From contig QPGO01000355.1 of NCBI GenBank assembly GCA_008632985.1, positions 1 through 43,701 on the forward strand: DNA of 43,701 nucleotides, written 5' to 3'. This document shows positions 1 through 35,317 of the stretch, one piece after another; the first letter of the stretch is position 1; each line of letters begins with the position of its first letter. A program made the position numbers and the translations under genes. The DNA is from Psammoneis japonica. Its lineage: Eukaryota. A model generated the notes under the pieces. It saw only the letters and a list, made by a program, of their open reading frames with translations. It was not told the origin of the DNA and did not search any database.

Positions 1-278
1 CACAGACACATCTTTTGAATGTTTCACACATCTCGCAAACAGCTTGCAAGCACCTCACACACACATTGCACACATCTCACAAGTGCCAGCACACACCTTG
101 TGCACATTTTGCAAACACCTCTTGCACACCTTGCACACATCTTTCAAACTTTTTTGTGCGCATCTTGTGCACATCTCACAAAACCCTCAAATGTGCCACT
201 TCACACACATCTTGCACACATCTCAAAAACATCTCACACACATCATGAGCACATCTTGTGCGCACCTTGCAAACACCT

Positions 279-860
279 CCAAAACAGATTGCGATGTGTT
301 CCAGCTGCACATGAACCAAATCGTGCATAAAAACAACATTTGCATGATTTTTGCGCGATCCCCAACTTGCGATCGATCTTTCACCACCAAAAGCATGGAT
401 TTGAGCAAGTGCAAATGTTTTGCAACACTGACAACACTCTTGTGAGTGCTGCAATGTCATTGTCACTGTGCTGTCTGTGTTTTTCATTGTTGTCACTGTG
501 CTGTCTGTGTTTTTCATTGTGCCAAAAGATTGGCAACACAACGGATGATTTTCCGCAAAAATGTTGCCATCGCTTGGATGTCACCTGAGTGTGTCTTTCT
601 TCGATGCCACTTGGCAGGTTTTCCACCTGCAAAGAAATCTCAGCAAAAACACACTGATGTGCAATCAGCGTTGAGTCTGCTGAGGAAGTTTGTGATGCAC
701 ACCCCACAACAAACTGCTCAACTGTTCACACTCTGGACACCCACAGAAGCCAATCCGCTTGAGCGTTTTGTGTGAAAATGCTCCATGCACTTAAAGACAC
801 ACAATTTACGTTCAAAGTCGATTGTCGTTTTGTGCATCATCTGGGACTGGAACACGTCTT
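279..860 (+). repeat. Module B copy 1 (decayed coding-like fragment; other copies at ~8138-8690 and ~17538-18090)
   Basis: Three near-identical copies starting CCAAAACAGATTGCGATG and ending CTGGRRCTGGARCACGTC. Copy 1 has an internal ~30-bp tandem duplication at ~461-520. Confidence 0.9.
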
Positions 861-1487
861 GCACACATTTTGCACACATTTGGCAAACATCTCACAAACA
901 CCTCATGCACAGGCACCACACACATCTTGCAAACACCTCTCACACACATTGTGCACACATCACAAATGCCTTGCACACATTTTGCAAACACCTTGCACAC
1001 ATCATTTCAAACTTTTTGCACCCACAAGTCAACATTGTCACAAAGCTTGCACACACATCTTGCAAACACATGACACACATTTCACACAAATCTGGCAAAC
1101 ATCTCACAAACACCTCATGTGCACACTGCACACCACATGCACACATCCTGCGCACCTCACATGTGTGCCCTGCAAATTGCTTGCACACACATCTTGCAAA
1201 CACACCACACAAGTCAGCCACACAGCTCCCACACATCTCCAGTGCCTCAGACATGCACAAGGTGTTTGTGAGATGTCGTGTCTGGTGTGTCGGAGCATGA
1301 GTGAGGTGAATTTGTCAAAGCAAGAGCACCTGCAAAACAGTTGTGGCACAAACTTTGTTGGCACGTTTTGCAGTTGTTGTGCTTGTGCTCAACTTTCCAG
1401 GAGCTTTCTCATGCAAAGTGCATCCAACCCCACATTTGCAGCCACATTCTCCAGTGTGAACCCCGGCGCTCATCAGCATCTCAACAA

Positions 1488-1952
1488 NNNNNNNNNNNNN
1501 NNNNNNNNNNNNNNNNNNNNNNNNNNNNNNNNNNNNNNNNNNNNNNNNNNNNNNNNNNNNNNNNNNNNNNNNNNNNNNNNNNNNNNNNNNNNNNNNNNNN
1601 NNNNNNNNNNNNNNNNNNNNNNNNNNNNNNNNNNNNNNNNNNNNNNNNNNNNNNNNNNNNNNNNNNNNNNNNNNNNNNNNNNNNNNNNNNNNNNNNNNNN
1701 NNNNNNNNNNNNNNNNNNNNNNNNNNNNNNNNNNNNNNNNNNNNNNNNNNNNNNNNNNNNNNNNNNNNNNNNNNNNNNNNNNNNNNNNNNNNNNNNNNNN
1801 NNNNNNNNNNNNNNNNNNNNNNNNNNNNNNNNNNNNNNNNNNNNNNNNNNNNNNNNNNNNNNNNNNNNNNNNNNNNNNNNNNNNNNNNNNNNNNNNNNNN
1901 NNNNNNNNNNNNNNNNNNNNNNNNNNNNNNNNNNNNNNNNNNNNNNNNNNNN
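1488..1952. other. Assembly gap (465 N)
   Basis: Run of N characters. Confidence 1.
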
Positions 1953-2299
1953 TGCACACATCTTTCAAACATTTTGCACATCTCACAAACATCTGTCAAA
2001 CACCTTGCACACACATTGTGCACATCTCACAAATGTCCTGCACACACCTTGCACACATTGTGCAAACATGTCACATGCATTTTGTGCGCGCATCTTTCAA
2101 TTGTCCCTCACAAACCTTTTGAAAAATTCATGCACATCTGCAAACACCTCACACACACCACTTCACACACATCTTGCACACATCTCACAAATGTCTTGCA
2201 CACATCTGGCGTGCATGTTGCGCACATCTTGCTGCTGACCACACATCTCATGCACACCTGGCAAACATCTCACAAGCAAATTGTGCACATGCTGTGCAC

Positions 2300-2536
2300 A
2301 TGGACCCAACAGCAGGCCATCAAGTCTCAAGCTTTTCATTTCCAGGTGGAAGCCCTGGGGTGCAACAAAACAGTTGGCAAACTTGGTTTCTGCCACTTCA
2401 AATTGCTCACAACAACAGCGAGATCGCCATCACATGCACCCGCAACAGACACGTGTTTCATTGTGGCTCTCCCCTCCAATTGCAATTTCAGAATCATCTT
2501 TTCCATCAGCAAGGATCAGATCTTGAACAAAAACTG
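2300..2536. repeat. Module H (copy at ~9675-9912; shorter variants at ~7060-7240, ~16005-16185, ~27900-28080)
   Basis: Shared GCAACAAAACAGTTGGCAAAC...CAATTTCAGAATCATCTTT...AACAAAAAC sequence, usually directly upstream of module C. Confidence 0.85.
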
Positions 2537-3146
2537 AGTGCAACAGGAGCAGCTCATTTTGAGAGACTTTGACAATGCCAGCTGAAGCAGCGGGTCTTTG
2601 ACTCCAATGTCAATGTCCATCAACATTCTTTTCTTGTTGTCCTCTTCCGCTGTTGGTGCTTGGTTGCCTCCACCCAATGGGGCACCCCTTCTTTAGAAGC
2701 TGAATGTGCACCTTGATGATGCCAATCATCAAATTCTGCACTCCAACTTGCTCCACGGCTTGCAATGTTCTCTGCCTCTTCCCAAGACACAAGTTGTCCA
2801 TTGCTCTCCAATTTGATTGCGTGTTCCAGCAAACAGAGCAATTCTTGGATGACACGGTCTGCCACTTTTGCTGATGGCGTTGCAGCTTCTTTTGCACCAG
2901 AAAAGTCTGGTTTCAGAATCTCCTGAGACCAGTTCTTGCTGCTCTGAATGAGTGGGCTGTCTTTGTCACAGATCTTGTGTTTCTTTGACTTGTCAATCAA
3001 AGTCTCCACAATGACGCAGAGAACAGACTGTTTGCATCCCATGTTTTCACTGCAACTCTTGTGCCCAAGGTTGTCAAAATGTGCAGTCAAGTGGCAGCAC
3101 TTTTTGAAAAGCATCTGAGATCAATTCCATCTTTGCCGAGTTGTTG
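2537..3146 (-). pseudogene. Module C copy 1: decayed minus-strand coding fragment, unidentified (copies at ~7240-7850, ~16185-17245 with TRIM insertion, ~19354-19964, ~28082-28690)
   Basis: Five copies in two subtypes. The minus frame stays open for 164-197 aa (ETLIDKSKKHKICDKDSPLIQSSKNWSQEILKPDFSGAKE...WSAEFDDWHHQG) with protein-like composition and no Tyr. Family not recognised. Confidence 0.55.
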
Positions 3147-3819
3147 CACTCATCATTGACACATCTTTTGAATGTTTCGCACAGCTCGCAAACAACTCAC
3201 ACACACATTGCACACATCTCACAAGTGCCAATGCACACACCTTGTGCACATTTTGCAAACACCCCTTGCACACCTTGCACACATCTTTCAAACTTTTTTG
3301 TGTGCATCTTGCACACATCTCACAAACCCCTCAGTTGTGACACTTCACACACATCTTGCACACATCTCAAAAACATCTCACACACATCATGAGCACATCT
3401 TGTGCACACCTTGTGAACACCTCAAGAACAGATTGCACACATTTTGCACACATTTGGCAAACATCTCACAAACACCTCCTCACGCACAGGCACTGCACAC
3501 ATCTTGCAAACACCTCTCACACACATTGTGCGCACATCACAAATGCCTTGCACACATTTTGCAAACACCTTGCACACATCATTTCAAACGTTTTGCACCC
3601 ACAAGTCAAACATTTTGCACAAAGCTTGCACACACATCTTGCAAACACATGGCGCACATTTCACACACATCTGGCAAACATCTCACAAACACCTCGCACA
3701 AACACTGCCCACCACATGCACACATCCTGTGCACCTCGCATGTGTGCCCTGCAAATTGCTTTCACACACATCTTGCAAAGACACCACACAAGTCAGCCAC
3801 ACAGCTCTTGCACATCTCC

Positions 3820-4275
3820 AGTGCCCTCAGATGTGCACAAGGTGTTTGTGAGATGTGTGTCTGGTGTGTGTGGAGCATGAGTGAGGTGATTTGTCAAAGC
3901 AAGAGCCACCTGCAAAAGAGTTGTGGCACAAACTTTGTTGGCACGTTTTGCAGTCATTGTGCTTGTGCTCAGCTTTTCCAGGAGCTTCCTCATGCAAAGT
4001 GCATCCAACACCACATTTGCAGCCACATTGTCCAGTGTGAACCCCGGCACTCATCAGCATCTCAACAACATTTGATGGCATGACACTCTTGCACCACAAG
4101 AGTCTTTTGAGGGCCAAAGAGTGTGCACAAAGCTGGGCAAACGGGGACAGGATGAGATGGATCTCTGCTGAACAACTTTTGCAGATGGAAACAGCAAGCC
4201 CTTTTCATGATCAAACCTTCTGAGTCAGCAAAATCTTTGTTGGGGTTTTCCAAACTCCTGCTGTGCTTGAAACAT
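3820..4275. repeat. Module G (copies at ~1240-1487, ~11120-11440 plus 13119-13226, ~18470-18925, ~20568-21022, ~22731-23502 plus 25180-25307, ~29377-29829)
   Basis: Recurrent GTGCCTCAGACATGCACAAGGTGTTTGTGAGATG...CTCCTGCTGTGCTTGAAACAT block. Two copies are split by module E. Confidence 0.9.
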
Positions 4276-4700
4276 CTTGCACACACCTCGCACACATGTT
4301 GCGCACATCTTTCAAATGTTTTGTGCACATCTTGCACACATCTTGCAAATCTGACACACACAATTTGCACACATCTTAAACACACACACCTCACACAATG
4401 TTGGCCAACATCTCATGTGCACATCTCACAAACACCCCACACACATCTTGTGCACATGTTTCAAATGTTTGCGCGCATCTTGCGCACACATTGCAAACAA
4501 CTCACAAACACTTTGCACACATCTCACACACATTCTGTGCACATCTTTTGAACACATCTTTCAAACATTTTGCACATCTCACAAACATCTGTCAAACACC
4601 TTGCACACACATTTGCACATCCCAAAAATGTCCAGCACACACCTTGTGCACATTGTGCAAACACATCATGTGCACTTTGTGCGCGCATCTTTCAATTGCC

Positions 4701-6745
4701 TTTGCTGAAACACACATCATGTTTCAGCAAAATTTGCTGAAACATGCGCTTTGCTGAAACAGGTTTGAGCAAAATCTGCTGAAACATGAGTCCTGTTTGA
4801 GCAATTTTGCTGCAATGATTGTGGCGGCATTTTGTTCATGCTTGTCTGGGTGGTTGGCCAGTCAGAGTGTCCGCTGGTGACAAGATCAGTTGCCGTGCAG
4901 ACAACGTGCAGATGCAATGAAGGACAGCCGATCCAATCCATTTGAGCATGGATTTGGAACGAGCTCAACGAGCCAGTTCCAGATCCGATTGCCAATGGTT
5001 TGGAGCTCCTGTCCATTGCACTTTTGGTTTCATGCACTGTCCCATGACAAAGCACACCACGTGCCACATCGTGCAGCCAAGCTGCACTGACACCATGGGG
5101 AAATGAGCAAGGTGTCATGATTGCTGCTGTTGCTTTGACAGGGAAGCAAAAAATGTTCCAAACAAGGCACCAACAATTGTTTGCAGCATCCAACAACAGC
5201 GCTTGCTGCAAAAATTAGCTCTTCTTCTCTCTTTAAAAAAAAATCATTCCATTGTTCCTTTTCCATGTCCCGCATGGTGCGTTGTCGACGTTGAAAATCA
5301 GAGTGTCATTTTCTGCATCTGTCATGGGAAACTGGCAGAAACAAAATGACGCTGTCCATGCACGTGTGTTCCTCAGATGCTGACAATTCCTTGGATGCTG
5401 ACAACTGCATCTGCAGCGGAAATCAACCCAGTGATTGCAGACTTGCTGGTGTCAGCGCAGTGGTCGTGAGAGCCCTGCAGAAAAAAGTCAGCAAACACAC
5501 TGCTTGTTGGCATGTCTGAGTGCAGCACAACAGCCAACGGTGCTGAGAAATCAAGTGCAACCATCAAAACAAGCACTGCTTTACAGTGGTGTGACTGCAC
5601 TCTCATCTTGATTGACGTTGTGGCCACTGATCTACAAATGATCAAGCCCCATGGTGGGAGATGTGGTGTTTTCCATTGTTCTGAGCATTGCATGAGATGC
5701 AACTTCAAAATGCCATGTCATGTGCCATGATGTCGCGTGGCTTCATGTGCAATGCATGGGGTGAACCTCAAGCAACCAGGAGGTGGTGGCTGCCCAATGC
5801 ACCCCAAGTGACCCGGATGTTGGGATTCTTGATTTGCCAAAATCACATCCATCATTGCACGCCCTCACCTGACAAACCTTGAAAGCTGCTGCTGCAATGT
5901 CGACAACCACGTGGCACTCTCAACAAGCATGACAATCATCTCAAATGTGCAACCCAATTGCATGATCAAATTGCACACATTCAAATTGGTGCGCTGGTGC
6001 ATTCTTGCCTTTCTTGCATCTAAAACGGGTGCTGTGAGATGACACAAGCAACAAAACTTTTCATCACGGTGATTGGTGATCGGTGCACACATCTTGTGCT
6101 GGAGTCATGCAGAATCCTGCAGGCAAAGCAGTTGACAGCCGTCATTTTTCTGAAAAGTCTTGGTGGACGTGCGCTGTGTTGTTCGATGCCTGCTTCACCT
6201 CCACAGCCACAGAAGCAGCCCATGTCAATTGGCTTGAAATGACACAGCATCTGAACGAAAGATTCCGGCAGAATGAGGTGTGAAAGACCCCAAAAAGAGG
6301 AAAAACACTTTGCCACAGCAATTCTCTGTTGTGACAAGGCAACGTTGACCATGCAGTGATTAAAGCGCATCATCGCCACACAGCATTGATGCAGCAGACT
6401 GGTTGAAATGTGGGCTGCTTGAACATTTTGCTTTTGCAGCAACTTGTTTGCTTCAAGCCTTGCCAAAGCACTGGCAAGTTTGTGCTTCAATGCGCCATGT
6501 GGTTGTGAGTGGAGTCAGTGCCAGCAACATGGGTGGCATTTTTTTTGTTCAGAAACTGAGTCACTCATCAACACACAATTTTGCCTGTTGCATGTTTCAG
6601 CAAAATTTGCTGAAACATGGCATGTTTCAGCATTTGCTGAAACATGACAGGTTCAGCAGAATCTGCTGAAACATTTGGCAGGTTTCAGAAATTGCTGAAA
6701 CGTGCATTTTTGGTGATGCACGACTCAGCTTTTGATGAAACATGC
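4701..6745. mobile_element. Module D copy 1: ~2-kb putative DNA element with palindromic subterminal repeat clusters
   Basis: Both ends carry arrays of TTTCAGCA/TGCTGAAAC motifs, including the 29-bp palindrome CATGTTTCAGCAAA-A-TTTGCTGAAACATG at 4718-4746 and 6591-6619. The interior is decayed and coding-like. No TSD or transposase motif recognised. Confidence 0.55.
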
Positions 6746-9700
6746 AGCAAATGCAAGACTGAAATGCAGTTTTTTAGTCATGAATGTCAACAACACTTGC
6801 AGCCGGGGTTTGCTCATTTCCGTTGAAATTGTGTGATGTCGCACATTTCAGCAGATTGCCCAGATGGCACTGCAAACACCCCACACATGTCAGGCACGCA
6901 ACTCCTGCACATCTCAAACAAACCTCACACACACCACACAACTGCCCCACACAGGCCTGGCACACTTGCTGTGCACACCTTGCACATGTGTTGCTCACAT
7001 CTTTTGCACATGCCACGCACATCTTTCAAACATTTCATGCATGTGTCGCGCACATTTCAAGCCCTGAGGTGCAACAAAACAGTTGGCAAACTGCCGCTTC
7101 AAATTGCTCACAAAAACAGCGGGACTGCCATCACATGTGTTCATGATGGACACGTGTTTCATTGTTGGCTCTCCCCTCCAACTTGCAATTTCAGAATCAT
7201 CTTTTCTGTCAGCAAGGATCAGCTCTGAAACAAAAACAGAGTGCAACAGAAGTGACTCATTGCATGAGACGTTGACAAGTCTCGCTGAAGTGGTGGGTCT
7301 TTGACTCCAAGGTCAGCGTCAAGCAACACTCTTTTCTTGTTGCCCTCTTCTGCTGTTGGTGCTTGGCTGCCTCCACCCAATGGGGCGCCCCCTTCTTTAG
7401 AAGCTGAGTGTGCACCTTGATGATGCCAATCATCAAATTCTGCGCTCCAACTTGCTCCATGGCTTGCAATGGTCTCTGCCTCTTCACAAGACACAAATTG
7501 TCAATCACTCTCCAATTTGATTGTGTGTTCCAGCAAACGGGGCAATTCTTGGATGATGCGGTCTGCCTCTTTTGCTGAAGGCATCACAATTTCTTTTGCA
7601 CCAGAAAAGTCTGGTTTCAGAATCTCCTGAGAGGACCAGGTCTTGCTGCTCTGAATGAGTGGGCTGTCTTTGTCACAGATCTTGTGTTTCTTTGACTCAT
7701 CAATCAAAGTCTCCACAATGACAAGGAGAGCAGACTGTTTGCATCCAATTTTTCACTGCAACTCTTGTGCCCAAGGTTGTCAAAATGTGCAGTCAAGTGG
7801 CAGCACTTTGAAAAGCATCTGAAATCAATTCCATCTTTGACGAGTTGTTGCGCTCGTCACAGACACATCTTTTGAATGTTTCACACATCTCGCAAACAGC
7901 TTGCAAGCACCTCACACACACATTGCACACATCTCACAAGTGCCAATGCACACACCTTGTGCACATTTTGCAAACACCTCTTGCACACCTTGCACACATC
8001 TTTCAAACTTTTTTGTGCGCATCTTGCGCACATCTCACAAAACCCTCAAATGTGCCACTTCACACAGATCTTGCACACATCTCAAAAACATCTCACACAC
8101 ATCATGAGCACATCTTGTGCGCACCTTGCAAACACCTCCAAAACAGATTGCGATGTGCTCCAGCTGCACATGAACCAAATTGTGCACATGAACAACATTT
8201 GCGCAATTTTTGCGCGATCCCCAACTTGCGATCGATCTTTCACCACCAAAAGCATGGATTTGTGCAAATGCAAATGTTTTGCAACACTGACAACACTCAT
8301 GTGAGTGCTGCAATGTCATTGTCGCTGTGCTGTCTGTGTTTTTCATTGCGTTAAAAGATTGGCAACACAACGGATGATTTTCGGCAAAAATGTTGCCATC
8401 ACTTGGATGTCACCTGAGTGTGTCTTTCTTCGATGCCACTTGGCAGGTTTTCCACCTGCAAAGAAATCTCAGCAAAAACACGCTGACGTGCAATCAGCGT
8501 TGAGTCTGCTGAGGAAGTTTGTGATGCACACCCCACAAAAAACTGTTCAAATGTTCACACTCTGGACACCCACAGAAGCCAACCCGCTTGAGCGTTTTGT
8601 GTGAAAATGCTCCACGCACTTGAAGACACACAATTTACGTTCAAAGTCAATTGTCGTTTTGTGCATCATCTGGGACTGGAGCACGTCTTGCACACATTTT
8701 GCACACATTTGGCAAACATCTCACAAACACCTCACACACAGGCGCCACACACATCTTGCAAACACCTCTCACACACATTGTGCACACATCACAAATGCCT
8801 TGCACACATTTTGCAAACACCTTGCACACATCATTTCAAACTTTTTGCACCCACAAGTCAAACATTTTGCACAAAGCTTGCACACACATCTTGCAAACAC
8901 ATGACACACATTTCACACACATCTGGCAAACATCTCACAAACACCTCATGCGCACACTGCACACCACATGCACACATCCTGCACACCTCGCATGTGTGCC
9001 CTGCAAATTGCTTTCACACACATCTTGCAAAGACACCACGCAAATCAGCCACACAGCTCTTGCACTTGCACACACCTCACACACATGTTGCGCACATCTT
9101 TCAAATGTTTTGTGCACATCTTGCAAATCTGACACACACATTTTGCGTGCATCTCAAACACACACACCTCACACAATGTTGGCCAACATCTCACACACAT
9201 CTCACAAAAACCCCACACACATCTTGCGCACATGTTTCAAACATTTGCGCACATCTTGCGCACACACTGCAAACACCTCACAAACACTTTGCACACATCT
9301 CACACACATTCTGCACACATCTTGTGCACACATCTTTCAAACATTTTGCACATCTCACAAACATCTGTCAAACACCTTGCACACACATTGTGCACATCTC
9401 ACAAATGTCCTGCACACACCTTGCGCACATTGTGCAAACACATCACGTGCATTTTGTGTGCGCATCTTTCATTTGTCCCTCACAAAACTTTTGAACAATT
9501 CATGCACATCTGCAAACACCTCACACACACCACTTCACACACATCTTGCACACATCTCACAAATGTCTTGCACACATCTGGCGCGCATGTTGCGCACATC
9601 TTGCATGCTGACCACACATCTCATGCACACCTGGCAAACATCTCACAAGCAAATTGTGCACATGCTGTGCACATGGACCCAACAGCAGGCCATCAAGTTT

Positions 9701-10739
9701 CAAGCTTTTCATTTCCAGGTGGAAGCCCTGGGTGCAACAAAACAGTTGGCAAACTTGGTTTTCTGCCACTTCAAATTGCTCACAACAACAGTGAGATCGC
9801 CATCACATGCACCCGCAACAGACATGTGTTTCATTGTTGGCTCTCCCCTCCAATTTGCAATTTCAGAATCATCTTTTCCATCAGCAAGGGTCAGATCTTG
9901 AACAAAAACTGAGTGCAACACACACACCACTTCACACACATCTCACAAATGTCTTGCACACATCTGGCATGCATGTTGCACACATCTTGCACACTTGCCA
10001 CACATCTCACACACATCTGGCAAACATCTTACAAACAAATCATGCACATGCTGTGCACATCTCACAAACACCCCACACATGTGTTGAGCACATCTGGTGC
10101 ACCTTGCGTGCATCTTTCAATGTTTTGCACACACCTGTCTTGTGCGCCATGCACACATCTTGCAAACACCCCACACGTGTCAGGCGTGCAACTCCTGCAC
10201 ATCTCAAATGAGCATCACACACACCACACAAATGCCCCACACAGGTCTGGCACACATGTTGTGCACACCTTGCACATGTGTTGCTCACATCTTCAGCACA
10301 TGCCATGCACATCTTTCAAACATTTCGTGAACGTGCCGCGCACATTTTGCAAATGCCTCGCACACATCTCGCGTGCATCTCACACACATCATCCAAACAA
10401 TTTGTGCACATCTCTCGCACATTTCTCAAACATCTTGCACACACCTCACATGCACATTTTGCACACATCTCACAAACACCTCACACACAATGTGCTTGCA
10501 CATGGCTTGCATTCATTTTGCTGGTGTCGCACACACACCTTGCCAGCACCTCACTCACATCTTGCACACATCTCATCCACATCTTTCAAACATTTTGTGC
10601 GCACCTTGCAAACACCTCATCTTGCAAGTGACTTGCACACATCTCACAAACACATCATAAAAAGATCACACACACCACACACAAATCTCACAAAAAATTT
10701 GCAAACAACTTGCACACACGTGTCCCACAATTTTTTGGA

Positions 10740-11070
10740 AGATCGCACACACAAAACATGTGGTGGATGATGAAATGCAATTGCATCACACGTTGCACTG
10801 CAAGCTCTCACCTGGAGCTGGAAAGCATCCAGTGCAGGTCCCAAGACTGCCTCTGTCATGCTCCAGAAGCACTGCAGTTTGTCTGGCTCAGCACACCATG
10901 GCATGCTGCCAGCGCACAACATGCCCTGCTTGGCTGGACTTGTGTTGAAAGACAAACAAAATGCTGTGCCATGATGCTCTCAGCAGCTTCTTTTGTTGTT
11001 GAGAAAATCAATGATGATGAGAGCATGTTTCAAGCACAACAGGAGTTTTTGGGTCAACCCAACAAAGGCT
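10740..11070. repeat. Module I (copy at ~22350-22680)
   Basis: Two near-identical copies. The 3' end (11025-11067) is an inverted copy of the end of module G (13187-13226). Confidence 0.85.
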
Positions 11071-11440
11071 CTTGCAAACACACCACACAAGTCAGCCACA
11101 CACAGATCCTGCACATCTCCAGTGCCTCAGACATGCACGAGGTGTTTGTGAGGTGTGTGTCTGATGTGTGTGGAGCATGAGTGAGGTGATTTGGCAAAGC
11201 AAGAGCTGCCTGCAAAAGAGTTGTGGCACAAACTCTGTTGGCACATTTTGCAATCATTGTGCTTGTGCTCAGCTTTGCAGGAGCTTTCTCATGCAACGTG
11301 TGTCCAACCCCACATTCGCAGACACATTCTCCAGTGTGAACCCCGGCGCCCATCAGCATCTCAACAACATTTGATGGCATGGCACTTTTGCACCATGTGA
11401 GTGCCTTTTGAGGGCCAAAGAGTGTGCACAAAGCTGAGCA

Positions 11441-13118: not shown

Positions 13119-13623
13119 ACAGGATGAGATGGATCTCTGCTGAACAACATTTGCAGATGGAGACAGCGGGTCTGAGTCAGCAAAATCTTTGTTGGGTTGA
13201 CCAAACTCCTGCTGTGCTTGAAACATCTTGCACACGCCTCACACACATGTTGCACACATCTTGCAAATCTGACACACACATTTTGCACACATCTCAAACA
13301 CACACACACACCTCACACAATGTTGGCCAACATCTCATGTGCACATCTCACAAACACCCCACACACATCTTGTGCACATGTTTCAAACATTTGCGCACAT
13401 CTTGCGCACACATTGCAAACAACTCACAAACACTTTGCACACATCTCACACACATTCTGTGCACATCTTTTGAACACATCTTTCAAACATTTTGCACATC
13501 TCACAAACATCTGTCGAACACCTTGCACACACATTGTGCACATCCCAAAAATGTCCTGCACACACCTTGTGCACATTGTGCAAACACATCATGTGCACTT
13601 TGTGCACGCATCTTTCAATTGCC

Positions 13624-22892: not shown

Positions 22893-23339
22893 TGCAGCAT
22901 GCATGCAGACAAAAGGTTGTTTTTGTCATGCCCTTTGTGACATTTAAAGGCTGCAACACGTCACCGTGATGCATTGACTCTCATTGGCAGCTGCGTGTTG
23001 CACTCCTCCCCATGCACCACGCGTCCATGCGGCTCTTTGCCAACATGCACTGACACTGCACGGTTTTGGTGGAACAGTGTGGGCATGCACGAAGGAACAC
23101 ACAGAACTGCACAGAGTTTTGCGCATTCGACAGTGATCAACGTTGCTGCAGACAACTCCCACTCAGGGTTTCGAACCCCTGGCCTCCTGCCCAATGGCTG
23201 CGATGAACCACTCCGCTGTGAATTCACAGTGCAGCATGCACGCAGACAAAAGGTTGTTTTTGTCATGCCCTTTGTGACATTCAAAGGCTGTGGCACATCA
23301 CTGTGATGCATTGACTCTTGTCAGCAGCTGCATGTTGCA
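22893..23339 (-). mobile_element. TRIM copy 2, 447 bp, independent insertion in the opposite orientation
   Basis: LTRs at 23230-23339 (5') and 22893-23002 (3'). PPT complement CTCCTCCCC at 23003-23011. 4-bp TSD CAGG at 22889-22892 and 23340-23343. Empty site AGCTTTGCAGGAGC at ~11271-11284. Confidence 0.95.
23157..23225 (-). promoter_or_regulatory. tRNA-derived A/B-box sequence inside TRIM copy 2
   Basis: Reverse complement reads CAGCGGAGTGGTTCATCGC...CAGGGGTTCGAAACCCTG. Confidence 0.7.
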
Positions 23340-23502
23340 CAGGAGCTTTCTCATGCAAAGTGTGTCCAACCCCACATTTGCAGACACATTCTCCAGTGTG
23401 AACCCCGGTGCCCATCAGCATCTCAACAACATTTGATGGCATGGCACTTTTGCACCATGTGAGTGCCTTTTGAGGGCCAAAGAGTGTGCACAAAGCTGAG
23501 CA

Positions 23503-25179
23503 CATGGAAGGACGCCGACTGTGGGTTGCCCCATGTCTTGCACCTTGACCTCCTTCACTCAACATTGGAGGTCATTCTGGGGTGGGTGCAGAGCTGAGGT
23601 TGGGAGGAGAGGTGGGTGCTTGACCTTCTCTGTTCCGTCAATGCCAAAAGTGCCCAGCTCCACAGGAGCAGCTTCTCACACAGCTGCTTCACTTGTGCGC
23701 AAAGCCTTTTCTTCCTGGATCTTCTGCAATTTTGCGGCAGTTGCCCGCCAATGACACCTGCGTGTGTTTCTGTGTGCGCTCCCGCGCTGATGTTGCCCTT
23801 CTCAGACGGCATTTCGCTGGGTCTCCCAAGACCATTCTGGCCATTTCAGCCAATGGCATGCCCTCATTTCAGCATGACAAGCAATGTTTCTAAGTGGAAA
23901 ATGACCCTGACCCCTGGCATCGACTCCTTGTGGTTCGCATGCTCGTTGATTTTTTTGCAATTTTCTGCAGACTCAAGAAATTGCCCACACGGATCACAGC
24001 ACAAATTCCACACCACGCGACAGCAACAACCACTGACGACTGCTGCGTCAATGCTCCAAACTGCTTGCGCCAATGCCCGTCAGTCCTCAACAACCTTCTT
24101 TGTCCCTGTCTGCCAATCAAGTGCTTTGCTGCATTTGGCGAAAGCACCTCTCCTCTGTTGCAGCACTGACGAGCATGAAAGTGAGTCTCCCTTTGGCGCT
24201 GAGCGATGATTGTCCTTTTGCTGTGGATCACAGCACAAACTCCACATGTGACAGCAACAACCACTGATGACTGCTGCATCAATGCTCCAAACTGCTTGCG
24301 CCAATGCCCGTCAGTCCTCAACAACCTTCTTTGTCCCTGTCTGCCAATCAAGCGCTTCGCTGCATTTGGTTGAAGCACCTCTCCTCTGTTGCGGCACTGA
24401 CGAGCATCAAAGTGAGTCTCCCTTTGGCACTGAGCAATGACTGTCCTTTTGCTGCATGCATCGGCATGTCTGCACAAGATCCGGCATGGTTTCTGCATGG
24501 GACAATTGTTTTTTCAGATGACTGACAAGGTCTGTCAACAAGGCTTGTTGTTTCACATCTGCAAGTCCTGTGCTGCCTTGCTTCTGTCTGCTGGCTGATC
24601 AAGCTCACTGCTCTGAGTGGCAATCTTGCTGTTTTTGCTGCAGTTCCTCAAGGTGTGCAAACAATGAGATGCCTCATGATGCCAGTTGGTGTCTGTCACT
24701 CAAGCAAATTCCAAGGTCCCTTTTGGTTTCTGGCATGGCTCCCATCAAATTTTTTCCCAAAATCAACTGTCCTCTGTGGTCACAGTGGTGCTGATGTGTG
24801 CATCACCAGCAAGACTGCAGCAAACTCCATGTGTTTTGTTCTCTGTTTCAGCTGTTTCCGTTGGGCGTCTCCTCTGGGAGATGCCGTTTCAGGCTGGTTG
24901 CGCGCACTTCTGCCGCATCTCCAAGTGGGGTGCGCTGGAAGTGTGGGTCAGCCGGCACCGGCGTTGCTGGGAAAAGGTGCAATGGCACCCAAAACAGTTG
25001 ATTTGGGTTTTTTTCTGGATCTTCTGGCCTGTCTTCTGCAACTGCGGGTGTGTGTTGTTTTGTCCTCCGCTTCTTTCACATGCCAGCAATGGATCCCCAA
25101 ACATGCTCAATGCATGGGATTGAATGCACCATCCTTCCAAAAGCTCTTTGCACATGACTCACCACCCTGTGCACCCAAA
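23503..25179. repeat. Module E copy 2
   Basis: Collinear with 11441-13118 at an offset of ~12062. Confidence 0.85.
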
Positions 25180-25709
25180 ACAGGATGAGATGGATCTCTG
25201 CTGAACAACATTTGCAGATGGAGACAGCGGATCCTTTCCATGATCAAACCTTCTGAGTCAGCAAAATCTTTGTTGGGTTGACCAAACTCCTGCTGTGCTT
25301 GAAACATCTTGCACACGCCTCACACACATGCTGCGCACATCTTTCAAATGTTTTGTGCATGTCTTGCACACATCTTGCAAATCTGACACACACACACCTC
25401 ACACAATGTTGGCCAACATCTCATGTGCACATCTCACAAACACCCCACACACATCTTGTGCACATGTTTCAAACCTTTGCGCACATCTTGCGCACACATT
25501 GCAAACAACTCACAAACACTTTGCACACATCTCACACACATTCTGTGCACATCTTTTGAACACATCTTTCAAACATTTTGCACATCTCACAAACATCTGT
25601 CAAACACCTTGCACACACATTGTGCACATCCCAAAAATGTCCTGCACACACCTTGTGCACATTGTGCAAACACATCATGTGCACTTTGTGCGCGCATCTT
25701 TCAATTGCC

Positions 25710-27650
25710 TTTGCTGAAACATGCTGCATGTTTCAGCAAAATTTGCTGAAACATGCATTTTGCTGAAACAGGTTTCAGCAAAATCTGCTGAAACATGAGT
25801 CCTGTTTGAGCAATTTTGCTGCAATGATTGTGGCGGCATTTTGTTCATGCTTGTCTGGGTGGTTGGCCAGTCAGAGTGTCCGCTGGTGACAAGATCAGTT
25901 GCCGTGCAGACAACGTGCAGATGCAATGAAGGACAGCCGATCCAATCCATTTGAGCATGGATTTGGAACGAGCTCAACGAGCCAGTTCCAGATCCGATTG
26001 CCAATGGTTTGGAGCTCCTGTCCATTGCACTTTTGGTTTCATGCACTGTCCCATGACAAAGCACACCACGTGCCACATCGTGCAGCCAAGCTGCACTGAC
26101 ACCATGGGGAAATGAGCAAGGTGTCATGATTGCTGCTGTTGCTTTGACAGGGAAGCAAAAAATGTTCCAAACAAGGCACCAACAATTGTTTGCAGCATCC
26201 AACAACAGCGTTCACTGCAAAAATTAGCTCTTCTTCTCTCTTTAAAAAAAAAATCATTCCATTGTTCCTTTTCCATGTCCCGCATGGTGCGTTGTCAACG
26301 TTGAAAATCAGAGTGTCATTTTCTGCATCTGTCATGGGAAACTGGCAGAAACAAAATGACGCTGTCCATGCACGTGTGTTCCTCAGATGCTGACAATTCC
26401 TTGGATGCTGACAACTGCATCTGCAGCGGAAATCAACCCAGTGATTGCAGACTTGCCGGTGTCAGCGCAGTGGTCGTGAGAGCCCTGCAGAAAAAAGTCA
26501 GCAAACACACTGCTTGTTGGCATGTCTGAGTGCAGCACAACAGCCAACAGTGATGAGAAATCAAGTGCAGCCATCAAAACATGCACTGTTTTACAGTGGT
26601 GTGACTGCACTCTCATCTTGATTGACGTTGTGGCCACTGATCTACAAATGATCAAGCCCCATGGTGGGAGATGTGGTGTTTTCCATTGTTCTGAGCATTG
26701 CATGAGATGCAACTGCAAAATGCCATGTCATGTGCCATGATGTCGTGTGGCTTCATGTGCAATGCATGGGGTGAACCTCAAGCAACCAGGAGGTGGTGGC
26801 TGCCCAATGCACCCCAAGTGACCCAGATGTTGGGATTCTTGATTTGCCAAAATCACATCCATTGTTGCACGCCCTCACCCGACAAACCTTGAAAGCTGCT
26901 GCTGCAATGTCGACAACCACATGGCGCTCTCAACAAGCATGACAATCATCTCAAATGTGCAACCCAATTGCATGATCAAATTGCAAACATTCAAATTGGT
27001 GCGCTGGTGCACTCTTGCCTTTCTTGCATCTAAAACAGGTGCTGTGAGATGACACAAGCAACAAAACTTTTCATCGCGGTGATTGGTGATCGGTGCACAC
27101 ATCTTGTGCTGGAGTCATGCAGAATCCTGCAGGCAAAGCAGTTGACAGCCGTCATTTTTCTGAAAAGTCTTGGTGGACGTGCGCTGTGTTGTTCGATGCC
27201 TGCTTCACCTCCACAGCCACAGAAGCAGCCCATGTCAATTGGCTTGAAATGACACAGCATCTGAACGAAAGATTCTGGCAGAATGAGGTTTGAAAGACCC
27301 CAAAAAGAGGAAAAACACTTTGCCACAGCAATTCTCTGTTGTGACAAGGCAACGTTGACCATGCAGTGATTAAATCACATCATTGCCACACAGCATTGAT
27401 GCAGCAGACTGGCTGAAATGTGGGCTGCTTGAACATTTTGCTTTTGCAGCAACTTGTTTGCTTCAAGCCTTGCCAAAGCACATTCAAAGGCACTGACTGC
27501 AGTGGCAAGTTTGTGCTTCAATGCACCATGTGGTTGTGAGTGGAGTCAGTGCCAGCAACATGGGTGGCATTTTTTTCATTCAGAAACTGAGTCACTCATC
27601 AACACACAATTTTGCCTGTTGCATGTTTCAGCAAAATTTGCTGAAACATG
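25710..27650. mobile_element. Module D copy 3 (right end shortened)
   Basis: Palindromes at 25727-25755 and 27622-27650. About 190 bp present in copies 1 and 2 is missing directly after the right palindrome. Confidence 0.55.
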
Positions 27651-30600
27651 TTTGCTCATTTCCGTTGAAATTGTGTGATGTCGCACATTTCAGCAGATTG
27701 CCCAGATGGCACTGCAAACACCCCACACATGTCAGGCACACAACTCCTGCACATCTCAAACATGCCTCACACACACCACACAACTGCCCCACACAGGCCT
27801 GGCACACTTGCTGTGCACACCTTGCACATGTGTTGCTCACATCTTTTGCACATGCCGCGCACATCTTTCAAACATTTCATGCATGTGTTGTGCACATTTT
27901 AAGCCCTGGGGTGCAACAAAATGGTTGGCAAACTGCCACTTCAAATTGCTCACAACAACAGTGGGGCTGCCATCACATGTGTTCATGATGGACACGTGTT
28001 TCATTGTTGGCTCTCCCCTCCAACTTGCAATTTCAGAATCATCTTTTCTGTCAGCAAGGATCAGCTCTGAAACAAAAACAGAGTGCAACAGAAGTGACTC
28101 ATTGCATGAGACGTTGACAAGTCTGGCTGAAGTGGTGGGTCTTTGACTCCAAGGTCAGCGTCAAGCAACACTCTTTTCTTGTTGCCCTCTTCTGCTGTTG
28201 GTGCTTGGCTGCCTCCACCCAATGGGGCGCCCCCTTCTTTAGAAGCTGAGTGTGCACCTTGATGATGCCAATCATCAAATTCTGCACTCCAGCTTGCTCC
28301 GTGGCTTGCAATGGTCTCTGCCTCTTCACAAGACACAAGTTGTCAATCACTCTCCAATTTGATTGCGTTTTCCAGCAAACGGGGCAATTCTTGGATGATG
28401 CGGTCTGCCGCTTTTGCTGGGGGCATCACAATTTCTTTTGCACCAGAAAAGTCTGGTTTCAGAATCTCCTGAGAGGACCAGGTCTTGCTGCTCTGAATGA
28501 GTGGGCTGTCTTTGTCACAGATCTTGTGTTTCTTTGACTCGTCAATCAAAGTCTCCACAATGACATGGAGAACAGACTGTTTGCATCCAATTTTTCACTG
28601 CAACTCTTGCGCCCAAGGTTGTCAAAATGTGCAGTCAAGTGGCAGCACTTTGAAAAGCATCTGAAATCAATTCCATCTTTGGCGAGTTGTTGCGCTCGTC
28701 ACAGACACATCTTTTGAATGTTTCGCACATCTCGCAAACAGCTTGCAAGCACCTCACGCACACACTGCACACATCTCACAAGCGCCAATGCACACACCTT
28801 GTGCACATTTCGCAAACACCTCTTGCACACCTTGCACACATCTTTCAAACTTTTTTGTGCGCATCTTGCGCACATCTCACAAAACCCTCAAATGTGCCAC
28901 TTCACACACATCTTGCACACATCTCAAAAACATCTCACACACATCATGAGCACATCTTGTGCACACCTTGTGAACACCTCAAGAACAGATTGCACACATT
29001 TTGCACACATTTGGCAAACATCTCACAAACACCTCCTCACGCACAGGCACCACACACATCTTGCAAACACCTCTCACACACATTGTGCGCACATCACAAA
29101 TGCCTTGTGCACATTTTGCAAACACCTTGCACACATCATTTCAAACTTTTTGCACCCACAAGTCAAACATTTTGCACAAAGCTTGCACACACATCTTGCA
29201 AACACATGGCACACATTTCACACACATCTGGCAAACATCTCACAAACACCTTGCACAAACGCTGCCCACCACATGCACACATCCTGTGCACCTCGCATGT
29301 GTGCCCTGCAAATTGCTTTCACACACATCTTGCAAAGACACCACGCAAGTCAGCCACACAGCTCTTGCACATCTCCAGTGCCTCAGACATGCACAAGGTG
29401 TTTGTGAGATGTGTGTCTGGTGTGTGTGGAGCATGAGTGAGGTGATTTGTCAAAGCAAGAGCCACCTGCAAAAGAGTTGTGGCACAAACTTTGTTGGCAC
29501 GTTTTGCAGTCGTTGTGCTTGTGCTCAGCTTTCCAGGAGCTTCCTCATGCAAAGTGCATCCAGCCCCACATTTGCAGTCACATTGTCCAGTGTGAACCCC
29601 GGCACTCATCAGCATCTCAACAACATTTGATGGCATGACACTCTTGCACCACGAGAGTCTTTTGAGGGCCAAAGAGTGTGCACAAAGCTGGGCAAACGGG
29701 GACAGGATGAGATGGATCTCTGCTGAACAACTTTTGCAGATGGAAACAGCAAGCCCTTTTCATGGTCAAACCTTCTGAGTCAGCAAAATCTTTGTTGGGT
29801 TTTCCAAACTCCTGCTGTGCTTGAAACATCTTGCACACACCTCGCACATGTGTTGCGCACATCTTTCAAATGTTTTGTGCACATCTTGCACACATCTTGC
29901 AAATCTGACACACACAATTTGCACAAATCTTAAACACACACACCTCGCACAATGTTGGCCAACATCTCACGCACATCTCACAAACACCCCACACACATCT
30001 TGCACACATGTTTCAAACATTTGCGCGCATCTTGCGCACACACCACAAACACCTCACAAACACTTTGCACACATCTCACACACATTCTGTGCACATCTTG
30101 TGCACACATCTTTCAAACATTTTGCACATCTCACAAACATCTGTCAAACACCTTGCACACACATTGTGCACATCTCACAAATGTCCTGCACACACCTTGC
30201 ACACATTGTGCAAACACATCATGTGCATTTTGTGCGTGCATCTTTCAACTCCCCCTCATGAACCTTTCAAACAATTTGTGCACATCTTGCAAACACCTTG
30301 CACACATCTTGCAAATCTGACACACACATTTTGCACACATCTCAAACACACACACACACACACACACACACCTCACACAATGTTGGCCAACATCTCACAC
30401 ACATCTCACAAACAACCCACACACATCTTGCACACATGCTTCAAACATCAGCGCACATCGTGCGCACACATTGCAAACACCTCACAAACACTTTGCACAC
30501 ATCTCACACACATTCTGTGCACATCTTGTGCACACATCTTTCAAACATTTTGCACATCTCACAAACATCTGTCAAACACCTTGCACACACATTGTGCACA

Positions 30601-31007
30601 TCTCACAAATGTCCTGCACACACCTTGCACACATTGTGCAAACACATCATGTGCATTTTGTGCGAGCATCTTTCAACTCCCCCTCATGAACCTTTCAAAC
30701 AATTTGTGCACATCTTGCAAACACCTGGCACACACCACTTCACACACATCTCACAAATGTCTTGCACACATCTGGTGTGCATGTTGCACACATCTTGCAC
30801 ACTGACCACACATCTCATGCAAACCTGGCAAACATCTCACAAGCAAATTGTGCGCATGCTGCGCACATCACACAAACACCCCACACATGCGCTGACCATG
30901 TCTGGCACACCTTGTGTGTGTTTTTCAACATTTTGCACACACCTGCTTTGCACACCATGCACACATCTTGCAAACACCCCACACATGTCAGGCGCACAAC
31001 TCACGCA

Positions 31008-32245
31008 CATCTCAAACATGCCTCTGGCACACACCCATGGCGTGCACATCTCTCACACACCGCGCACATCTCACACACATTTTTGCAAACACTTTGCACA
31101 CATCACTCAAATGTTTTGTGCACGTGCCACACACACCTTGTTGCAAACATCTCACAAACACCTTGCACACATTTTGCAAACACACCTTGCACTCATCTTG
31201 CACACATTTTCCACACATCTCATGCACATCTTGCACACATTGTCCAAACATTTTGCACACATTTCTCAAACATCTTGCTGATGCCTCGTGCATTTTGCAC
31301 ACACTTTGCACACATCTGGTGTGCACGTCTTGCACTCACACACATCTTGCAAACACCCTGCACACACCTTGCACAATTGCAAGCATCTTGCTGACACCTC
31401 ACACACACATCTCTTTTGAGTGTGTTGCGTGCATCTCAAACATGCCTCTGGCACACACCCATGGCATGCACATCTCTCACACACTGTGCACATCTCACAC
31501 ACATTTTTGCAAACACTTTGCACACATCACTCAAATGTTTTGTGCACGTGCCACACACACCTTGTTGCAAACATCTCACAAACACCTTGCACACATTTTG
31601 CAAATGCACCTTGCACTCATCTTGCACACATTTTCCACACATCTTGTGCACATCTTGCGCACATTGTCCAAACATTTCGCGCACATTTCTCAAACATCTT
31701 GCTGATGCCTCGTGCATTTTTGCACACACTTTGCACACATCTCGTGTGCACGTCTTGCAAACACCCTGCACACACCTTGCACAATTGCAAGCATCTTGCT
31801 GACACCTCGCACACACACATCTCTTTTGAGTGTGTTGCGCGCATCTCAAACATGCTTCTGGTGCACACCCATGGTGTGCACATCTCTCACACACCGTGCA
31901 CATCTCACACACATTTTTGCAAACACTTTGCACACGTCACTCAAATGTTTTGTGCACGTGCCACACACACCTTGTCGCAAACATCTCACAAACACCTTGC
32001 ACAAATTTTGCAAAAACACCTTGCACTCATCTTGCACACATTTTCCACACATCTTGCACACATTGTCTGAACATTTTGCACACATCTCTCAAACAACTTG
32101 CTGATGCCTCGCGCATTTTGTGCACACTTTGCACACATCTCACATGCACGTCTTGCACTCACACACATCTTGCAAACACCCTGCGCACACCTTGCACAAT
32201 TGCAAGCATCTTGCTGACACCTCACACACACATCTCTTTTGCGTG
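31008..32245 (+). repeat. Higher-order tandem repeat of the satellite, 3 units of ~410-424 bp
   Basis: Marker CATCTCAAACATGCYTCTGG at 31008, 31432 and 31842. Confidence 0.9.
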
Positions 32246-32796
32246 CTTTGCACACATCTTTCAAGCGTTCTGCACACATGATCTTGCAATCACCACATTT
32301 TGCAACCACCTGCGCACATCTCATGCACCACATCGTTCAAACGCTTCACACACATCTCACACACAGCATGGTTTTTCAAACATCTGGCAAAACACCTCAC
32401 ACACACTTCTTCACAAACATTTTGCAAACATCTCACAAACACCTTGTGCACATCATTCATGTCATGCACCTTTTGTTTGTGCGCATCTTTCAAACATTTT
32501 GCACACATCTCACCCAAGCACCTCACACACATTTGACACACATCTTGTGCGCATCTTGTGTGCACGTCTTGCACACACCTGGCACACATCTTGCACACAT
32601 CTTCCAAACAATTTGTGCACAACTCACACATGTCTTGCAAACACCTCACACGCATCTCCAGTGCACATCTTGCACAAATCTTTCAAACACTTCACACATC
32701 TTGCACACACACTGCAAACACCTCACTCACATCTCACACACATCTTGCACAACCACCTTTTTGTGCACATTTCACATGTTGTGCACATCTTTCAAA

Positions 32797-34278
32797 CAGG
32801 ATGCTGAGACCTGCTGCAGCCATGGAAATTGGGGCACAATTCAGGGCACAATTTGGTGGAGTGCAATTCAGGGCACAATTTGGAGGTGCAAAAATGTGCG
32901 CCGCGCAAATGTGCGCCCAAAATTGCGCCCATTGTCACACGAGTGCAAGTGTGTGAAATTGGGTGTCTGCAATTCTGAGAGAAATGATGTGTCCATTGAA
33001 CACATGCTCCTGAAATTTTGATGATGACTGAGCAGGAATGACTCCACATCTCTGATTTTGGTCAACTTGCATGTGTGCAAAACTGAACACTCCAATGACA
33101 GCATCAAAACACTGTGGTGCTCAGCAGCTCCGCTGCAACCTTGTGCACGCCAAATCATTGTTCTGACAAGTCCTGTTCATTTGCGATGACTTGGCTGACA
33201 TTGCAAATTGCTGTTGCATCCATGGGCTTTCAGCAACCACATGACGATGTGTTTTTCTTGTGAGGTGGCATGAACTTGCCTTCCGTCTGTCATCCGTTGA
33301 TGGCAATCTCATCATTTTTGCCACTGTTTCTTTCATGAATGTGCCACACAATGGCTCCCCAGCAAGCAGTCCCTCTGCATCTCTTGCTGATTGAAGTTCA
33401 TTGTTGGTTGTTGGTTGTCACTGTTGTTTGACACTCTGATGTTTGTTGCCATCATGGGCAATGATGAGTCTGGAAAAGAGTGATGTGGGCTGCGTGCTGT
33501 TGCACATTTTGCACATGTGTCTTGGTTTGCACATGACGCCAGCAAAGCAAGCCAAAGTTTGCTTCACACACCGCATCATCAAGTTGCCATTGTGGTTGTC
33601 ATGACTGCAGAAACAACACAAATTGACAGTGTGAAATGAACACAATGTGTCTCTTGAAGGAACTGGCAAAGCACACAGCAGTTCTTCTGCAGCGGACCTT
33701 TTGTCCTCAAAAGATTTTGCCAGTCTTGATGTGCATCATAGAAAGTCAATGCATGAGATCACCAAAGTGCATCTGTGTGACACAGAAACAACTGTGCTGA
33801 CCAATTTGGATGCAACCACTTCAATGGCACTGTTGTTGTGTTGTTTGAATTTAGGCTGGGGGCTCGAATGGCCCAAGAAGGAGTGAGCAAAAGCTCTCTC
33901 CACTTGACAACCACTTGAGTTGCTCCACAAGCTTGTTGCATTTGCACTGAACAAAAAAAAAAGGCACCCCCAGACTGAGAAAAACATGGCGGCTCTGATG
34001 GCGTCATTCTTGTTGTCACAAGGCAGAGCTTTGGTGCCATCATCATGGGCTGTCATCTTCATTGCACCAGGCAGGGTGTTTGCAGCACCTTTTTGTTTTT
34101 CACACCAGCTGGGTTGCCAAAATGCCAAAATGAAAAAGAACTGAGGTTGGCTCTTTTTCATTTTCTTTTTTTGCTTGCCCAGGGTTGGCCTTGCACCCCA
34201 AAGTTGCGCCCCAAATTGCGCCCCCACCCCACTCGCACTGTGACTGCAACGGGTCTGAGACCAGCACACAGCATCCTG
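32797..34278. mobile_element. Putative TIR DNA transposon remnant (~1.48 kb)
   Basis: Left end CAGGATGCTG-AGACCTGCTGCAGCCA. The right end reverse-complements to CAGGATGCTG-(12 nt)-AGACCCGTTGCAGTCA. Subterminal GGGCRCAATTTGG repeats in inverted orientation at ~32831-32930 and ~34191-34225. No TSD or transposase motif seen. Confidence 0.6.
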
Positions 34279-34329
34279 ACTGCAACAACTGAAAAAGTGA
34301 AAAAAGCTTGTGTCATTGCTCAAGGATCA

Positions 34330-35300
34330 AACAGCAAAGAGAGGGTGGGGAAATGACATGATGGCCCCACCTTCTGGAAAATGATCACTGGGTGACACAA
34401 AAATCGCAGGACAACTTTGTTCCCCACCAAGCAAGAAGCCAAACTGCTGCCACCTTTGAAAAATGATGTGACTCCTCAGAAGTGCAAATGACTCTAGCCA
34501 AAAGTTTTCCAGAGGCAAAATGTTTGGGTTGGTTGGGCTGCAGCCAAATCAACTCACACAAGCCAGACCTTTTGCAGCCACGATGAAGGCACTTGTGCCC
34601 ACTCCCTCTCAAGGGAACATGAGAGCTGTGCCCTGCACAACTCCCACTGTGGTGTGTGCTGCAGAAAAGCTGGCATTGCCAAATGACTCTGTTGCCAAAT
34701 GTTTGTGTTGCCTCTCTTTGCTGGTCAAAGCAACGATGACCAGCTTCTCTTGCTGAGAACTTTCTGAGGCTCTGGAGCTGCAAAAAACTTTCTCCAAAGC
34801 AGGCCCTTTTTCAGCTTCTTGCAATCATGCAACACAACTCATGCCCACACAAACATGATGCCATTGATGGATCCACATTCACGGGATGTTGCAGCACCAG
34901 TGAACAGGGCTGCGGCAAAGATGAGTGTTGTGACAGCAGCTTTAAATGGGGCGGTCTGCTGTGTGCGTGCATGTGTTGAGACCTGCCAAAACGACATGTT
35001 GATGGATCAGAAGCCTTTGCAGGTTTTCACTGGAACACCAAAAATGAGCTCTCCAAGCTGTCCATCATCATTGGGGGGGGGGGGGGGCTCCTCTTCAACA
35101 GCCGCCAACCCCACTCTGTTGGAGAACATTTCGACCCAAGCCCTTTCCCCACCCTGCAACACCAGCAAGTTTTCAACCACCTTGATGGCGTTCTTCACGT
35201 GCAATTTTGCAGAACTGCCTCAAATGAGATGACCATCCTTCATCTGGATCTCATCGATGTCCACTCCTCGAACATCGGAGTCGTTTCTCCCATTCGTTTC
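34330..35300 (-). pseudogene. Possible decayed minus-strand gene remnant at the compartment border
   Basis: Protein-like stretches (DSDVRGVDIDEIQMKDGHLI*GSSAKLHVKNAIKVVENLLVLQGGERAWVEMFSNRVG; TTLIFAAALFTGAATS) broken by TGA stops and frameshifts. Family not recognised. Confidence 0.3.
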
Positions 35301-35317
35301 TCTCTACGAGTCGTGCA

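Follow-up and report, generated by a model that had tools for sequence, protein, structure and literature searches.

Context-dependent survival of TpA dinucleotides in a TpA-erased repeat domain of a diatom genome

The window analysed here is the whole of contig QPGO01000355.1 of Psammoneis japonica (GenBank assembly GCA_008632985.1), 43,701 nucleotides in length. Most of it is occupied by a repeat domain (the array) from which the dinucleotide TpA has been almost entirely erased and in which CpG is depleted; beyond it lie three genes, used here as control compartments, and a smaller TA-poor island (Table 1). The taxon of the window is a diatom: the protein encoded at 42,156-43,701 has 51 homologues, and the names that carry an organism, including Nitzschia, Attheya, Skeletonema, Thalassiosira and Conticribra, are all those of diatoms.

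Table 1. Coordinates of the features of the window; for surviving TA sites the first copies are listed
Feature	Position	Strand	Evidence or remark
TpA-erased, CpG-depleted repeat domain	1..35300	.	composition, tandem-repeat search, self-BLAST
Assembly gap, 465 N	1488-1952		
Surviving TTAA	792, 4377, 5234, 6361, 8352, 15719, 16003, 16540, 16877		
Surviving TTAG	2694, 5216, 6775, 33852		
Surviving CTAA	6021, 11829, 12534, 22303		
Surviving TTAC	807, 5582, 10030, 18122		
Surviving ATAA	328, 10658		
Surviving ATAG	33739		
Surviving CTAC	5633		
Surviving CTAG	34495		
Polarised loss in the array	806..809	+	TTAC at 807 and 8636 vs TTGT at 18036; product TG
Segment with six surviving TAs	5200..6400		4 YTAR, TTAC, CTAC; copies at ~14.1-15.3 kb and ~26.2-27.4 kb
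Polarised site	34238..34242	+	window CTGTG vs CTACG in other haplotype or copy (run contigs); TAC->TG, CpG decay adjoining
GT61 (glycosyltransferase family 61) gene, intact	35318..36817	+	PF04577, E=1.2e-18; TA and CG normal; control compartment
Separate TA-poor island	37515..39060	.	between two intact genes (GT61, pseudouridylate synthase)
Island polarised sites, window vs diverged copy	37547, 37592, 37624		GCAG vs GTAG; ATGT vs TTAT; TTGC vs TTAC; all fit TAY->TGY
RNA pseudouridylate synthase gene, exon	39951..40427	+	PF00849, E=1.9e-21; TA normal; control compartment
bHLH-MYC_N-domain protein gene, part	42156..43701	+	PF14215, E=2e-5, under the curated cut-off; control compartment and taxon marker

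The observed/expected ratio (o/e) of TpA per kb is 0.00-0.07 throughout the array (1-34.9 kb) and 0.34-0.71 in the adjoining genic kilobases, and the GC content of the array is about that of the genes despite this contrast. Over positions 1-35,000 TpG and CpA are enriched, roughly twofold (per kb, TG o/e 1.7-4.4 and CA o/e 1.6-4.1), and CG o/e is 0.17-0.55 per kb. Normal TA resumes at 35,305 and all three genes are spared, which shows that erasure is limited to discrete domains, the island at 37.5-39.06 kb being one of them. Three public runs, from one sample that is possibly the source of the window, were aligned to 32,780-43,701, and the comparison covers 40 of the 412 differences found; one public run shares 0.77 of the window's words and may be that source sample, and among the runs listed as sharing its words none was of RNA.

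The array is composed of an 11-bp CACACATCTTG-type satellite interspersed with segments outside the satellite; these occur as 2-9 diverged copies, which by self-BLAST are mostly 85-97% identical and nearly all in the same orientation. Its sole inverted pair (16484-16930 and 22893-23339, 87% identical) carries in each member an internal repeat bearing TTTAAA survivors. Within 1-32800 the satellite alternates between TTGC, TCAC and TCGC at one unit position, a pattern that would be expected if the unit descends from a TA-containing, AT-richer one.

The TAs that survive in the array are strongly biased in their flanks. Positions 1-34,900 hold 49 raw TA: 17 TTAA, 17 CTAA/TTAG, 7 GTAA/TTAC, 3 ATAA, 3 CTAC, 1 ATAG and 1 CTAG. 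Thus 35 fall in the class YTAR (Y, pyrimidine; R, purine) and none in RTAY, GTAC, ATAT and ATAC/GTAT all being absent. The original prediction, made from the letters of the sequence, had reported this pattern, and its descriptive part is accurate: all 12 positions that it listed as TTAA, TTAG or CTAA bear the tetramer given, and the four RTAY tetramers are indeed lacking. Many raw TAs are paralogous (7398, for example, is a copy of 2694). Positions were therefore collapsed to independent sites by the union of self-aligned positions, with alignments no shorter than 200 bp and no less than 84% identical, which leaves 26: 9 TTAA, 8 CTAA/TTAG, 4 TTAC, 2 ATAA and one each of CTAC, ATAG and CTAG. 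They span 328..34496 and divide into 18 YTAR, 8 YTAY/RTAR and no RTAY. The YTAR fraction to be expected was taken from five nulls: 0.153 (TA, TG, CA and CG sites together, in 12,812 non-redundant bases), 0.213 (likewise, without the satellite), 0.157 (from TA in the genes), 0.251 (from a first-order Markov model) and 0.183 (weighted by the routes of TA gain). Against the resulting 15-25%, 18/26 gives p from 9e-10 to 3e-6; for RTAY, none of 26 against an expected 24-40% gives p from 2e-6 to 9e-4. Merging two more doubtful paralogue pairs by hand leaves 16/24 YTAR, still at p<=2e-5. The bias of the survivors toward YTAR is real and robust, and the prediction that survival is not uniform holds with duplicates collapsed and composition corrected (p<=3e-6).

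The flank rule is finer than a distinction between pyrimidine and purine. When the A of each strand is treated separately and classed by its 3' base, the negative log-likelihood falls from 30-40 under uniform loss to 13-20 with purine and pyrimidine classes and to 11-15 with classes for A, G and pyrimidine, and separating 3' C from 3' T adds little to the fit. Relative to a 3' A, the fitted loss rate is 9-41 times higher before a pyrimidine and 2-5 times higher before G; since these ratios depend on model and null, only the rank order of protection by the 3' base is safe (A > G >> C ~ T). The next base counts as well, as +2 is A in 21 of the 36 strand-sites of YTAR survivors against a background of 32% (p=0.001). 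A 3' A thus shields beyond a 3' G, and a further A next to it strengthens the effect.

By itself CpG decay does not produce the erasure or the bias among survivors, because CpG-depleted control loci keep their TA. An 18-base motif of the window retrieved 23 metagenome loci, none of which is TA-erased, and eight of these, with CpG o/e of 0.36-0.45, retain TA o/e of 0.52-0.57; in one of them (L004) YTAR accounts for 82 of 361 TA. The eight loci (L001, L004, L008-L010, L013, L018 and L020) have CpG o/e near 0.4, are rich in TG and CA with normal TA, and resemble one another in composition; they are probably one repeated or viral element.

The erasure has left a record in the divergence of the repeat copies. 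Where at least three copies align, 2 of 1208 CA/TG columns contain a new TA, where about 15 would be expected; the corresponding figure for the remaining non-CpG C->T changes is 10 of 794 (p=0.0025). Double changes between CA and TG are found in 16 of 1208 columns, while double transitions of other kinds number 1 in 3420 (p=6e-9). Deficit and excess together are the trace left by TA creation followed by rapid re-erasure, and they show that new TAs have been removed since the copies split. CpG decay is fast in the same columns (CG, 30/136). One point tells against this picture: some CA<->TG flips can pass through CG rather than TA (about 1/4 by a rough, uncomputed estimate). A->G after C is scarcely raised (34/1208, against 27/1336 after A or G) and CA is not depleted, which differs from the preference of TadA editors for YA. 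Among singleton paralogue differences in 1-34900, A->G outside TpA amounts to 18-28 per 1000 and non-CpG C->T to 10-15; A->G is thus at least as common, which is unusual for an AT-biased spectrum, with a polarity that is uncertain.

The island is less eroded and a weaker case than the array: it has 10 TA, of which 4 are YTAR and one is RTAY (GTAT at 38167). A diverged copy, about 90% identical and keeping its TAs, is present in runs X1 and X2; run X2 behaves like RNA, since the island copy shows a GT..AG skip in it. Homology to this copy starts sharply at 37515, which suggests that the island may be an inserted duplicate or mobile element, erased after insertion. Two of its six frames were searched for protein homologues, giving no match among 2,319 candidates for frame P0001 and none in 1.84 billion representatives for frame P0003.

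Which of the two bases is read is a separate question. The original prediction placed the target at TAY (TAY->TGY) on the ground that YTAR has no TAY on either strand. YTAR has no RTA on either strand either, so survival cannot separate the two targets; the TAY and RTA models are mathematically identical in this respect, and only the products discriminate. At the polarised sites the products fit TAY->TGY in five cases out of five (p=0.03). In the first, TA is ancestral because the copies at 8636 and 18036 are the closer pair, with the TA copy at 807 as outgroup.

Several observations weaken this direction. It depends on five sites, at four of which the polarity (TA ancestral) is assumed, and at 37592 the 5' base differs between the copies. 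A loose end before 33096, with CTAT against CCAA in the window, may oppose TAY, which would make the score 5/6 (p=0.11). The normal GT61 gene, too, has a TTAC/TTGC difference (35870), therefore such pairs arise without the mutator, and at two more TAs in the paralogue of the island the change is a transversion (37603 and 37644-5). In Y..Y context the CA<->TG flips show no significant direction (all singletons, 4/194 and 3/360, p=0.25), and polarised flips are too few to give one (1/194 against 1/360). The share of YTGY relative to YCAY is 0.624 in the array outside the satellite, for which the TAY model gives 0.607 and the RTA model 0.443; in the island it is 0.727 and in the genes 0.538. This composition test was discarded and carries no weight, as three TA-normal, CpG-depleted control loci give 0.669-0.685. 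Polarisation by codons (Tyr->Cys against Tyr->His) yielded nothing, no protein homologue having been found for the erased DNA in the Pfam searches and in those of two island frames. What stands of the predicted TAY target is the non-uniform survival, the fit of a per-strand model with fast loss before pyrimidines and the five products, which weakly favour TAY over RTA; the argument from YTAR does not distinguish them.

The reading that we prefer, with a probability of about 0.65, is a domain-targeted mutator that converts A:T to G:C at TpA, independently of strand and fastest at TAY, in silenced, CpG-decayed repeats of this diatom. The A of each strand would be struck independently at a rate set mainly by its 3' base, TAC and TAT being fast, TAG slower, TAA slowest and TAAA slower still, and the loss rate of the duplex would be the sum of the two strand rates. 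Under this sum RTAY would be lost first and YTAY and RTAR after it, while YTAR would hold out to the end, TTAA and TTTAAA in particular. Ordinary C->T mutation would go on making new TAs, which would be erased again, often to the other product, and so appear as CA<->TG flips between copies.

The enzyme most likely to act in this way would be an adenine deaminase of the TadA/ADAT fold working, within repeat chromatin that is methylated, on DNA while it is transiently unpaired, a proposal that we hold at even odds. Adenine deamination is the leading chemistry because TadA-derived editors favour YAY over YAR and strike TA genome-wide. The preference for YAY over YAR is reported for TadA-derived editors (PMC12528748), that for YAY also for the adenine base editor ABE7.10 (PMC10188366), and genome-wide off-targets at TA, with 5' T favoured, for ABE8e (PMC13225742). 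The original prediction had drawn a parallel with bacterial TadA, and for a 3'-pyrimidine preference survival fits the parallel and the five polarised products lean towards it (p=0.03), the composition test being confounded. The parallel fails on the 5' side, where it tells against our proposal: the editors (ABE7.10, ABE3.1, ABE8e and ABE8e-YA) are laboratory-evolved and accept CA as well as TA, whereas only TA is lost here and CA is enriched. Targeting to methylated chromatin would explain the common extent of CpG and TpA loss, and a role in genome defence may be supposed. More tentatively, diatoms, or this lineage, may possess a natural DNA adenine editor that acts on methylated repeats, is strict for 5'-TAY, avoids TAA(A), is still active and forms the A-to-G counterpart of repeat-induced point mutation (RIP) and APOBEC, either shared or convergent with that of Bigelowiella. 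No deaminase gene, which would carry an HxE..PCxxC motif, was seen within the window.

The same duplex rule could hold with the lesion on the other base. The T of 5'-RTA might be modified, for instance oxidised, and then wrongly copied as C; or a repair polymerase prone to errors might be at work in these domains. TAY->TGY and RTA->RCA are the same base-pair change, hence every count is compatible, and strict TA specificity with CA untouched is unlike TadA editors. Thymine oxidation of the TET/JBP type exists in some protists. The likeness to adenine deaminases in preferring YAY to YAR, however, favours the A side. Polymerases resembling Pol eta follow a WA rule, which is unsupported in the array since A->G shows no increase after A (18/838). 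We consider this explanation unlikely, though worth keeping in view.

Alternatively, any TpA might be taken, and the bias would come from DNA shape or chromatin shielding at junctions of T and A runs or in protected patches, with YTAR a by-product. TTAA is indeed the most protected class, A is enriched at +2, and the TTAC and CTAC survivors often stand beside T or A runs. The segment at 5.2-6.4 kb also speaks for such protection: all six of its TAs are kept in 3/3 copies despite about 4-5% divergence. The persistence in three copies of TTAC at 5582 and CTAC at 5633, both YTAY, is contrary to a uniform fast 4-mer rule, which equally does not predict that TA was lost in only 1 of 8 majority-TA columns; both facts weigh against the simplest form of the preferred mutator. 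The 4-mer rule is therefore incomplete, with site-level or regional protection beyond the tetramer, and what survives is a resistant tail that owes its persistence to wider context or to local protection. The segment and its copies have 25.8 CpG per kb against 13-22 elsewhere and may be younger or protected. As the whole explanation, however, shielding is doubtful: CTAA/TTAG and CTAG sites devoid of long runs also survive (12534, 34495 and 5216), regional clustering of survivors is marginal (p=0.03 to 0.08), and the polarised products are asymmetric, an outcome that protection of the entire duplex would not produce.

That the mutator instead reads the base 5' of the T, with target RTA and product RTG (that is, TAY->CAY), is improbable. 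It predicts the same survivors as the TAY model, the loose end before 33096 may fit it, and the satellite has many TCAC besides TTGC at the same unit position, but it is opposed by the products of all five polarised sites.

That the bias stems from duplicates, from base composition, from the routes by which TA is gained, from simple CpG decay or from errors of sequencing can be set aside: although the 49 raw sites contain only 24-26 independent ones and CpG is depleted in the same domain, the most conservative count still gives p<=2e-5, the gain-weighted null gives 18% YTAR, CpG-depleted control loci keep TA, and short-read contigs, from a run that may be the source sample, show 0 differences from the TA-poor sequence at 34326-35064.

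The closest known system is that of Bigelowiella natans, as described in a preprint (Mettrop et al., bioRxiv 10.64898/2026.01.13.699255). There, A:T->G:C transitions confined to TpA were measured directly in integrated DNA from large DNA viruses of the nucleocytoplasmic group (NCLDV) and from virophages, in discrete domains with long-term TpA loss and gain of CpA and TpG; TpA-poor coding sequences are rich in transposon domains. The de novo rate is raised about 1000-fold and the process is active in only some lines; an ADAT-like deaminase was proposed as a candidate (same source). The words "flank", "context", "trinucleotide" and "diatom" are absent from the main text of the preprint, whose supplementary mutation table (Table S2), for the 231 mutations of hypermutable regions, could hold flank data. 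Erasure is deeper in the diatom array, with an o/e of about 0.02 and CpG decay, against 0.45 as given for the NCLDV region. The hosts differ, a diatom here and a chlorarachniophyte there, as do the targets, a satellite and segmental-repeat array here and integrated viral DNA there. TpA depletion with TpG and CpA enrichment and discrete domains with genes spared are found in the window also, and A:T->G:C change at TpA is indicated by the five polarised sites, the deficit of new TA and the excess of flips, all in small numbers.

RIP in ascomycete fungi is likewise a dinucleotide-specific transition hypermutation of repeats, with sharp limits against genes. It acts mainly at CpA, raises TpA and needs an RID methyltransferase-like protein. 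The change in RIP is C->T, whereas in the window TpA is what is attacked and disappears, and the hallmark of RIP, C:G->T:A change that creates TpA, is not seen: of all C->T classes, that before A is the least frequent (2/1208). The process is not RIP, because its polarity is opposite.

Spontaneous mutation in the diatom Phaeodactylum tricornutum, in the accessible text of PMC6604790, has CG as the most mutable dinucleotide, which matches the CpG decay here; "TpA" is absent from its main text, and TA is not among the mutagenic dinucleotides that it names. A paper on the mutation spectrum of Prasinoderma, considered in the same way, was not relevant, with no mention of TpA in the part available (PMC11884799). 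A report of TpA hypermutation in a diatom or stramenopile was not found in a literature search to which subscription papers were mostly inaccessible. Within the literature searched, the process itself has been reported once, in the 2026 preprint, and what is new here is the host lineage, the repeat target and the flank rule.

Near-complete erasure in a second, distant lineage suggests a wider eukaryotic route of genome defence. The flank rule makes the question of the enzyme testable, in that candidate deaminases must show TAY > TAG > TAA and ignore CA, and a natural TA-strict DNA adenine deaminase, if it exists, would be of interest to developers of base editors. For annotation, erased repeats escape homology searches and yield many false open reading frames, because the stops TAA and TAG vanish.

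In B. natans the target is DNA of viral or other foreign origin, and in RIP the trigger is duplication of sequence. For the former, no recognised viral gene was found, neither by Pfam on 16 open reading frames and 42 six-frame or read-through translations of seven segments, with no credible match in erased DNA, nor in the homologue searches of the two island frames. A 24-base satellite consensus had no match in viral contigs, a weak test given that the exact string is absent from the window as well. As for duplication, the domain is repeated and the island has a paralogue, yet 34.3-35.0 kb is erased at single-copy-like depth and the island's paralogue retains its TAs. At 33145-34239 contig depth is about 10 times that of the neighbouring DNA, which marks this TA-erased stretch as a dispersed element present in many copies, some of which stop near 33472 beside TA-containing DNA.

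Some smaller features complete the description of the window. Higher-order periods of 424-428 bp occur at 29.9-32.3 kb, and a 231-bp tandem duplication lies inside the erased domain at 11928-12393 and 23991-24454. A short Thyroglobulin_1 match (E=5e-5) was judged spurious, being a Cys-rich translation of this 231-bp repeat. In the genic part, 563 bases at 41460-42024, bounded by GT..AG, are skipped in run X2; they are an intron of the gene to which the bHLH-MYC_N region belongs.

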